Of a stretch of DNA of 35,916 bases, positions 1,644 to 2,313 are shown piece by piece. Within the stretch, counting starts at the first letter, position 1; every line of letters starts with the position of its first letter. Location of the stretch: the IMG/VR virus record IMGVR_UViG_3300045988_120569, one strand, 5' to 3'. Origin of the DNA: a virus. A program made the translations under genes and the position numbers. The notes beneath the pieces were generated by a model that saw nothing but the letters and a program-made list of their open reading frames with translations, was not told the DNA's origin and searched no databases.

Positions 1644-1690
1644 ACAAAAAAACAGTGCTCCCTTGCCATTAGAATGGTAGGGGAGCACTG
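1644..1690 (-). terminator. Minus-strand-oriented intrinsic terminator facing the repressor region
   Basis: CAGTGCTCCC (1653-1662) pairs with GGGAGCACTG (1681-1690). The A-run 1644-1652 gives a U-tract only on the minus strand. Confidence 0.65.
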
Positions 1691-1706
1691 GTGGCGTTGA
1701 ATTATA

Positions 1707-1726
1707 GTAAACATAACCCCAATTCG
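1707..1726. repeat. Left arm of a 20-bp perfect inverted repeat (GTAAACATAACCCCAATTCG)
   Basis: Exact reverse complement of 2294-2313. Confidence 0.9.
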
Positions 1727-1727
1727 G

Positions 1728-1735
1728 TAACTTTG
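1728..1735 (+). promoter_or_regulatory. Bacteroidota-type -7 box TAacTTTG, candidate repressor-gene promoter
   Basis: Matches TAnnTTTG. It abuts IR-L. No well-spaced -33 TTTG was seen. Confidence 0.4.
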
Positions 1736-1862
1736 TACAACTAACATTGTTAAGTAACGAGGTTACATGGTGCAAATATAGCATATTCGATAATATAATA
1801 GCAAATGATATTGCAATTATTTTCAATTACAATAGTAAAATAAGAAGTATAAAACACCAATT

Positions 1863-2279
1863 ATGAAAGATTGTGGACAATTAGAACAGTTAATTATAGC
1901 GTTTGCGAAAGGTAACCAAAGTTCATTCGCAAAACAAATGGGCGCAAGTCAAGGTACTATTGGTACATGGTTAGCACGCAAAATCTTCGATCCTGAGCGT
2001 ATAAAACGTGCTTTCCCCAAAGTTGATGGCAATTGGTTGCTTACAGGGGAGGGTGAGATGTTACTGCCCGAAGATGGGGGTAATACAGTTCATGTTAGTG
2101 GGCATCATAACACCGCACGAGTAAACTCGTCAGGTAGCTTAGAAGTCAGTAATTATGGGAGTTCTGAGCTTCCTGAGGAAAATCAAAACTTACAAATGCT
2201 AAAGCAAGAGAATGTCTCATTACATGCCCTACTCGCTGAAAAAGAACGCCTCATAAAAGTGCTTCTTGACCGTAAATAG
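1863..2279 (+). CDS. CI-type HTH repressor-like protein with a C-terminal coiled coil
   Basis: N-terminal HTH (SSFAKQMGASQGTIGTWL) ends in the NWLLTGEGEM signature typical of phage CI-repressor N-domains. The C-terminus is leucine-rich (LQMLKQENVSLHALLAEKERLIKVLL). Confidence 0.75.
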   Translation: MKDCGQLEQLIIAFAKGNQSSFAKQMGASQGTIGTWLARKIFDPERIKRAFPKVDGNWLLTGEGEMLLPEDGGNTVHVSGHHNTARVNSSGSLEVSNYGSSELPEENQNLQMLKQENVSLHALLAEKERLIKVLLDRK

Positions 2280-2293
2280 CCCCCTAATCGTGT

Positions 2294-2313
2294 CGAATTG
2301 GGGTTATGTTTAC
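2294..2313. repeat. Right arm of the 20-bp perfect inverted repeat (CGAATTGGGGTTATGTTTAC)
   Basis: Exact reverse complement of 1707-1726. It overlaps ATG 2306 and ends 8 nt before ATG 2321. Confidence 0.9.

Follow-up and report, generated by a model that had tools for sequence, protein, structure and literature searches.

A repressor cassette enclosed by a short inverted repeat and present in both orientations among related phage contigs

The 35,916-nucleotide (nt) stretch of viral DNA analysed here, IMG/VR virus record IMGVR_UViG_3300045988_120569 (hereafter the window, meaning the whole stretch), carries beside its integrase gene a 607-bp segment in which a CI-like repressor gene and two facing candidate promoters are enclosed by a perfect 20-bp inverted repeat (IR), and exactly this segment is turned around in 21 of 80 related contigs, with the junctions inside the repeat. 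The distribution of both orientations and the structure of the repeat arms make it very probable, close to certain, that site-specific recombination between the repeat arms inverts the segment. A preliminary description of the window, made from its letters alone, had offered an invertible segment as one of three readings of the repeat, the others being paired operators for repressor-mediated looping and a long-range RNA stem, and had named homologous prophages as the place to look for either orientation; the comparison reported below bears out the first of these readings. The segment and the genes on either side of it are as follows.

1707-1726, plus strand: IR-L, the presumed left recombination site, GTAAACATAACCCCAATTCG; made up of the outer element GTAAACATAAC, which is conserved, followed by N4 (here CCCA), which varies, and ATTC(G)
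2294-2313, minus strand: IR-R, the presumed right recombination site, exact reverse complement of IR-L; includes ATG 2306
1707-2313, no strand: the invertible immunity cassette, 607 bp with both arms; inner part 1727-2293 (567 nt)
1863-2279, plus strand: CI-like repressor gene, 138 amino acids (aa), with an N-terminal helix-turn-helix (HTH) of the phage 186 CI type and a coiled-coil-like C-terminal segment
268-1548, plus strand: tyrosine integrase gene, encoding the only recombinase detected in the window; 159 nt from IR-L
2321-2846, plus strand: orf2321, with a conserved CGW motif, and an HTH_17 excisionase-like gene (2649-2846); the first early genes, on the outer right flank

The repeat and its two orientations

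Both copies of the repeat are found exactly where the preliminary description had placed them, 567 nt apart and enclosing an AT-rich region with the repressor gene downstream of it. Allowing up to three mismatches, GTAAACATAACCCCAATTCG matches the window at the two arms only, none of 100 dinucleotide shuffles of the window yields a comparable repeat, and back-of-envelope arithmetic gives about 3e-5 expected perfect 20-mer inverted pairs no more than 1 kb apart in 36 kb, so that the earlier judgement of a chance origin as very unlikely stands. IR-R does overlap ATG 2306, as had been noted; this start codon is in frame with ATG 2321 of orf2321, and 7 nt separate the end of the arm (2313) from the latter. 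No target-site duplication was found around the cassette.

The set of relatives numbers 80 distinct contigs, drawn from assemblies of IMG/VR, JGI and ENA/Logan and in many cases labelled as human-gut metagenomes, and was built from an exact 20-mer search of IMG/VR, a protein-based search, a metagenome pattern scan, contigs encoding seven repressor clusters (51-88% identity) and an IMG/VR scan with the generalised site. Orientation was called by comparing the strand of the repressor gene with those of the integrase, orf1 and HTH_17 genes and from the junction sequences, and the orientation of the window is termed forward. By this measure 59 contigs are forward and 21 flipped, and every breakpoint falls inside the arms. 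The exact 20-mer search of IMG/VR returned two contigs, of which L001 is arranged like the window and L002 shows a flipped junction, in which GTAACTTTGTACAATTAAC..., a sequence that in the window comes after IR-L, stands next to the orf2321 flank and its repeat arm. Similarly, L004 and L005, with a repressor 83% identical and a different perfect repeat (GTAAACATAACCTTTATTCTA), are respectively window-like and flipped with both junctions visible. L002, L005 and L059 are thus flipped and the window, L001, L004 and L055-58 forward, and lineages C, D and E (site types are listed below) likewise hold both orientations.

Complete flipped contigs with both junctions are available for L005 (against L004), L074, L079, L082, L083 and L107 (against L105), and both orientations are present in every well-sampled lineage (types A and B, three type C groups, D, E1 and E2), amounting to at least eight sublineages. 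For most flipped contigs the nearest forward relative is 98-100% identical over 1.5-kb flanks on each side, and the flanks of the flipped contigs L107 and L110 are 99.9-100% identical to those of L112 and L109, the opposite orientations coming from different samples of one study. The flips hence appear to be both recent and recurrent. An assembly artefact is ruled out because the k-mers used in assembly, given in contig names as 119-141, exceed the length of the repeat (19-21 bp, more in type E) and long contigs span both junctions; the contigs, moreover, come from several assemblers. The repeat accompanies six of the seven repressor clusters, the exception being P0103, and the element spans two phage groups, with its site in five variants. 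Contig breaks at the repeat were also considered as a sign of mixed populations and dropped, since locus ends proved to be storage chunk boundaries (L132 against L004); the only verified contig end inside the segment is that of L059.

Beyond this set, window positions 1-4000 gave no blastn match among 50,697 GenBank phage records, and GTDB representative genomes contain relatives at no more than 35% identity, all of them without the repeat. A repressor relative about 58% identical is a Prevotellamassilia timonensis protein (by its NCBI name), and the distant relatives in genome bins are mostly from Prevotella or Prevotellaceae, which loosely suggests a Prevotella-like host.

Site anatomy and the recombinase

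The arms, placed alike in every relative with the cassette, share in all lineages the plan AACATAAC-N4-ATTC, with the following variants.

Type A (window): N4 is CCCA; perfect 20-mer
Type B: N4 is CTTT; perfect 21-mer
Type C (largest lineage): N4 is ATGT; arms differ at positions 1 and 10
Type D: N4 is GTTA; arms differ at position 3; site TT[T/G]AACATAAC-GTTA-ATTC
Type E1: N4 is ATTG; arms differ at positions 1 and 3
Type E2: N4 is ATCG; arms differ at positions 1 and 3

The two halves of the arm evolve in different ways. The inner half, N4-ATTC, varies among lineages and is always the same in both arms of one phage, down to the single-base change that separates E1 from E2. The differences between arms in the outer half (positions 1, 3 and 10) remain with their own outer flank in every flipped contig, which places the crossover within the inner 9 bp; this fixity of the outer differences and the concerted inner half together argue for site-specific recombination. 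The outer element behaves like a protein-binding site in these comparisons. With up to two mismatches, GTAAACATAAC matches the window eight times against nine expected, and exact matches to AACATAACNNNNATTC in the window are the two arms only. The complete arm site was not found elsewhere in the window, including the 101-bp repeat at its ends, and occurs in 139 fetched loci at cassette ends only.

Two further notions about the site were set aside. A palindromy of the arm, which would have made it a full recombinase core site, was seen by eye in type C and is not kept in type A, and a likeness of the inner TAnnTTTG to the CTnDOT core GTANNTTTGC has the opposite geometry with respect to the crossover. 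The inverted repeat of type E reaches inward past ATTC and takes in TTTACATT (for example L123, 2718-2748, and the partner arm), so that the start of the TACATTTG box is copied at both ends of the segment; this may mark the true inner limit of the recombination site or a second promoter directed inward.

Scans of 34 window open reading frames (ORFs) with Pfam and PHROGs revealed no recombinase other than the integrase, and no resolvase domain, the mark of a serine invertase, was found in any of the scanned ORFs. The nearest candidate for the enzyme is hence the phage's own tyrosine integrase (268-1548), which could act on the segment as FimB and FimE do at fimS and make the switch phage-autonomous. 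Besides being the sole recombinase found in the window, the integrase gene adjoins the segment, and recombinase genes often lie beside their invertible segments, as in fim and the Bacteroides Tsr-type switches. Integrases 57-84% identical to that of the window accompany all arm types but D, namely A, B, C and E, and an obligatory arm identity of 8-9 bp would be in keeping with a tyrosine recombinase and its overlap region. Against this stands type D, which belongs to a different phage group (with early genes DUF4494, VRR_NUC and Lin1244_N, and an integrase gene divergent from the early genes): its integrase shows no significant similarity to that of the window (BLASTP E = 2.6), yet it has nearly the same site and flips as often, in four of eight contigs. 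The outer element, furthermore, stays near-constant while window-type integrases diverge to 60% identity, and nothing resembling the site occurs in the 101-bp end repeat, a candidate attachment (att) sequence, or elsewhere in the window. Inversion by the phage's own integrase is therefore rather unlikely. The persistence of one site beside a dissimilar integrase, and the constancy of the outer element, point instead to a shared trans-acting enzyme, most simply a host invertase, although the chances that the invertase is host-encoded seem to us about even. An integrase might also be supplied by a co-resident prophage.

Predicted effect of the flip on the lytic switch

The regulatory features on which the consequences of an inversion would depend are listed here.

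1728-1735, plus strand: P+, a -7 box TAACTTTG of the Bacteroidota TAnnTTTG type, directly inside IR-L and without a -33 TTTG; presumed repressor promoter, which moves with the cassette
1773-1805, minus strand: P-, a full-consensus promoter match with -33 TTTG at 1805-1802, a 21-nt spacer and -7 box TATATTTG at 1780-1773; leftward in the window
1742-1766, no strand: operator-like palindromes TAACATTGTTA (1742-1752) and GTAACGAGGTTAC (1754-1766), between the facing promoters and over the expected P- start
1641-1690, minus strand: leftward intrinsic terminator, with a hairpin at 1653-1690 (-23.1 kcal/mol, z -4.0) and a U-run from 1652 to 1641, UUUUUUUGUUUG
1584-1619, plus strand: rightward terminator of the integrase gene (hairpin 1584-1612), predicted to insulate the cassette from integrase read-through

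TAnnTTTG has only two matches between 1500 and 2700, the P+ box, which is the sole one on the plus strand, and the P- box. The candidate TAacTTTG box of the preliminary description is present at 1728-1735, and the minus-strand box it had flagged exists as well (CAAATATA) but lies at 1773-1780 instead of 1774-1781, and forms part of a complete -33/-7 match, TTTG-N21-TATATTTG. The full motif TTTG-N18-22-TAnnTTTG has four matches in the 36-kb window against 0.5 expected, P- being one of them, and the motif scan of the window found no plus-strand full-consensus promoter between 1549 and 8600; by motif match, the early genes have no full-consensus promoter near them other than P-. The arrangement is conserved: the position of the P+ box is unchanged across all five types, A to E, both boxes keep the same distances from the arms in types A-D, the -33 element of P- is kept in types A-D with spacers of 19-21 nt, and palindromes analogous to those of the window, such as CGTAACGCGGTTACG and GTAAACATTGTTTAC, are seen in other types. 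The -7 boxes at 1728-1735 (plus) and 1780-1773 (minus) face each other, with predicted starts about 25 nt apart as estimated from box positions. P+ is proposed to be weak and P- strong.

The leftward terminator, canonical in form, is predicted to work in one direction only, as had been described: the hairpin on the minus strand is followed by a U-run, and the plus-strand reading of the same hairpin continues into GUGGCGUUGA, without one. Equally, no credible minus-strand gene was found to its right, where there are only short ORFs, none above 63 aa within the promoter region of the segment. Such an orphan terminator is explained only if transcription sometimes comes from the right, and in the flipped orientation the repressor gene does face it, a corollary that the preliminary description had drawn from an invertible segment. 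At the same position, type C relatives have back-to-back hairpins, as read from their sequence. No terminator was found between the repressor stop codon and orf2321.

The product of the cassette gene is a putative repressor. PHROG repressor families match the 138-aa protein at E values of 1e-6 to 1e-4, and the Pfam family PF07022 matches nine of 15 aligned family members (best E 9.6e-6), with the window copy falling below the 22-bit Pfam cut-off (16.7 bits, E 0.0095) and the match to the 186 CI structure 2fjr being weak (E 0.53). A conserved NWLLTGEGEMLLP motif is present in the protein. Domain scans found no S24 (LexA-type) peptidase domain in it and, because a repressor of this kind has no autocleavage domain, induction of the SOS type is not obvious.

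These elements suggest a model in which 1707-2313 constitutes a site-specific inversion switch around a prophage immunity cassette, with strand exchange in the inner halves of the arms. In the forward orientation, P- would fire leftward through IR-L into the leftward terminator and produce only a short RNA (about 120 nt by estimate), while P+ would still make repressor and its transcripts would read on into orf2321; immunity would be kept with the lytic promoter physically disconnected, yielding a locked lysogen. In the flipped orientation, the repressor gene would be read leftward up to the leftward terminator, and P- would drive orf2321, the excisionase-like gene and further early genes under repressor control. 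A flip back would restore an inducible, lytic-competent prophage, and the frequency of inversion would set the fraction of prophages or infecting genomes able to enter the lytic cycle. The orf2321 and HTH_17 genes are common to all cassette-bearing groups and to the repeat-less P0103 group, where the repressor is 51% identical, orf1 and HTH_17 are again present, and repressor and early genes are laid out divergently. The repeat-less relatives at no more than 35% identity all have the divergent layout too, and the constancy of this layout in repeat-less relatives indicates that the flipped state is ancestral and the forward state derived. Promoter activity and the phenotype of each orientation are predicted here from motifs and gene order, and that the flip couples and uncouples the lytic promoter, with the window in the locked state, appears to us somewhat better than an even bet. 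More tentatively, and with chances a shade under even, the switch may amount to a heritable and reversible DNA layer on the lysis-lysogeny decision, in which a flip of about 600 bp, probably run by a host recombinase, physically joins the only strong early promoter to the early genes or separates it from them while immunity stays on.

The state of the contigs also bears on this model. Among 34 contigs with host genes beside the integrase gene, and hence integrated, 27 are forward, as expected of a quiescent state, and excised-type junctions, with the right end of the phage beside the integrase gene, occur in four flipped and two forward contigs. The association of orientation with integrated or excised state is a weak trend (Fisher p = 0.039) among contigs that are not independent.

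Several points weigh against the proposed switch. Since no terminator follows the repressor gene, forward P+ transcripts should enter the first early genes, and a locked prophage would not be a silent one. The promoters and operators are motif matches only, and switching within a population is deduced from near-identical contigs of different samples. The two forward contigs with excised-type junctions (L055 and L100) indicate that orientation is not strictly tied to the lytic state. Finally, no invertase is identified among the scanned window ORFs, where the integrase is the only recombinase and, given the same site beside a dissimilar integrase in type D, probably not the enzyme in question.

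The first of these points could also be taken to mean that the inversion is real and its polarity opposite, with P+ reading repressor and early genes as one unit in the forward orientation, an ON or establishment state, and the flipped orientation being the quiescent one. The uninterrupted passage from the repressor stop codon to orf2321 and the mere 7 nt between IR-R and ATG 2321 would suit such a unit, and type C has the same tight junction. P+, however, has no -33 element and overlaps operator-like sites, and should therefore be weak and self-limiting, whereas the strong conserved promoter is P-. The forward majority among integrated prophages is, moreover, hard to fit with a lytic ON state, and repeat-less relatives complete their life cycle with the divergent layout. 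The opposite polarity is, accordingly, an improbable alternative to the locked-lysogen model.

Still less probable is that the repeats serve as paired repressor operators for looping, or as a long-range RNA stem hiding the start codon, with inversion as an incidental outcome. The AACAT/TAAC motif of the arms does resemble half of the operator-like palindromes, the type E palindrome GTAAACATTGTTTAC has 8 nt in common with its arm, and the overlap of IR-R with ATG 2306 is real. The arms, however, are not palindromic operators, and with operator-like palindromes already lying between the promoters, paired operators at the arms are not needed. As to the stem, which we consider unlikely as a function, an mRNA begun at P+ would not contain IR-L, the integrase terminator (1584-1612) blocks the only transcripts that would hold both arms, and type C arms carry two non-compensated mismatches that segregate with their flanks, as expected of recombination sites and not of a stem.

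That the two orientations are a neutral polymorphism produced by rare RecA-dependent recombination between short repeats, are artefacts of assembly, or are the trace of a small element with terminal inverted repeats is highly improbable: any inverted repeat can in principle mediate inversion and the composition of the cassette does differ from that of its flanks (repressor-gene GC skew of 0.13 against 0.30-0.56 in neighbouring genes), but the repeat is too short relative to the k-mers and too often crossed by long contigs for an artefact, the 9 bp within which type C exchanges are confined are too short for efficient homologous recombination, and the site plan is kept, with a concerted inner half, across repressors 57-66% identical (types C and D) and two phage groups. 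A transposon or miniature inverted-repeat transposable element was rejected on the further grounds that the cassette has no target-site duplication and that the early-side flank is homologous in all groups, which leaves no room for independent insertion.

Relation to known systems and neighbouring features

Inverted-repeat switches with an outward promoter and invertible segments of phages are both well known, and it is in cargo and logic that the present element differs from them. The invertons of Bacteroidales (such as the Mpi or Tsr-type promoters of capsular polysaccharides) and fimS likewise consist of short inverted repeats around a few hundred bp with an outward promoter, they likewise occur in both orientations, and a flip connects or disconnects the adjacent operon, as is predicted here; the Bacteroidota are rich in such switches. 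Those segments carry a promoter alone, whereas here a whole regulatory gene and two facing promoters are enclosed, in a temperate phage and at the junction of its own repressor and early genes. The arm, AACATAAC-N4-ATTC, is presumably also unlike the Mpi-type motif. Phage-borne site-specific inversion with both orientations in populations is likewise seen in the G segment of Mu (Gin), the C segment of P1 (Cin), the P segment of e14 (Pin) and phiCh1 (int1). Those segments swap the C-termini of tail fibres, and thereby host range, with their own invertase adjacent to them; in contrast, no serine invertase or extra recombinase was detected here, and the cargo is a putative HTH immunity repressor with a lytic promoter.

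A parallel in regulatory layout is the developmental switch of coliphages 186 and P2, with its CI or C repressor, in which the lytic promoter is set face to face with the lysogenic one (pR/pL or Pe/Pc) and operators lie in the space between, as is predicted here, and an excisionase-like HTH gene (Apl/Cox) lies early in the lytic operon. The repressor HTH is tentatively assigned to the same Pfam family as 186 CI (PF07022, with the window copy below cut-off). This geometry is matched in the flipped orientation only, and flipped type D contigs show the gene order of 186, with the integrase gene (int) and the repressor gene (rep) both reading leftward and the early genes rightward (int <- rep, -> early genes). 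In 186 and P2 the layout is fixed, whereas here the unit of promoters and repressor would turn relative to the early genes. Rearrangements of DNA that alter expression of an immunity region are known in other forms. The L-segment of Halobacterium phage phiH, about 12 kb in length, is inverted through insertion sequence copies. Neither this nor the case of mycobacteriophage BPs is a small, reversible, repeat-bounded flip of a repressor and promoter unit; in BPs, the attP lies within the repressor gene, and integration there shortens its product (PMC4557955). What appears to set the present element apart is that a complete immunity unit, comprising a putative repressor gene, predicted operators and both switch promoters, turns with no invertase beside it. 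Full-text literature searches, which left most subscription journals uncovered, found no description of an invertible repressor cassette.

The choice between dormancy and lysis in prophages of gut Bacteroidota is largely unexplained, and many of their repressors have no SOS-sensing domain. If the model holds, inversion would represent a new kind of control point in which the inducible fraction is set stochastically and inherited, as in capsule phase variation, giving rise to phase-variable inducibility in gut Prevotella-type prophages, with locked and inducible lysogens, or to bet-hedged infection outcomes. Such a switch would work without an SOS-cleavable repressor and might put prophage induction under host control; should a host enzyme run it, the host could lock its prophages. 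Orientation would be readable from metagenomic reads as a marker of prophage state, and prophage predictors and induction assays would take locked prophages for defective ones. With 80 contigs, the element is a common one.

Several features of the repressor gene and its surroundings are recorded here in their own right. The low GC skew of the repressor gene is equalled by a few late genes; it would be expected of DNA that spends part of its time in each orientation, and proves nothing given those late genes. In contigs L062-L067 (for example L062, 3395-4451) and L121 the repressor is encoded by two paralogues in tandem, which share about 84% and 88% identity with that of the window, differ in the HTH recognition region and lie together in one invertible segment with arms 1017 nt apart, an arrangement that suggests dual-immunity cassettes. 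The remaining full-consensus promoter matches of the window lie at 25942-25980 and 33395-33433 on the plus strand, which are candidate late or moron promoters, and at 3523-3494 on the minus strand, inside the ORF at 3439-3732.

At the ends of the window, positions 1-101 are an exact copy of 35816-35916 and carry the 3' end of a transfer RNA (tRNA) gene with its terminator hairpin; ARAGORN found no complete tRNA. The 101-bp repeat represents either attL and attR of a prophage in its integrated form or the overlapping ends of an assembly that is circular. A stretch of about 900 bp ahead of the primase gene (3960-4875) is without a credible ORF or an Rfam match, and a search of the whole window with Rfam returned no family. 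At about this place, L063, L064 and L066 encode a further tyrosine recombinase, XerC/D-like and 372 aa long, beside a 334-aa gene, and the type D contig L111 has an rve-family transposase at a comparable place in its early region. The genes at 3114-3389 and 3439-3732 (91 and 97 aa) are diverged tandem duplicates, which show up as the direct repeats D1 and D4, spaced by 337 nt and 74-82% identical. Finally, the interval between the integrase gene and the integrase-side arm is occupied in many type C relatives by an inserted HicA-toxin gene together with a gene of 133 aa, possibly a HicB-like antitoxin, and this insertion, or the 133-aa gene alone, is found among L068, L069, L076, L079, L080, L083, L084, L088-L092, L094, L095 and others.

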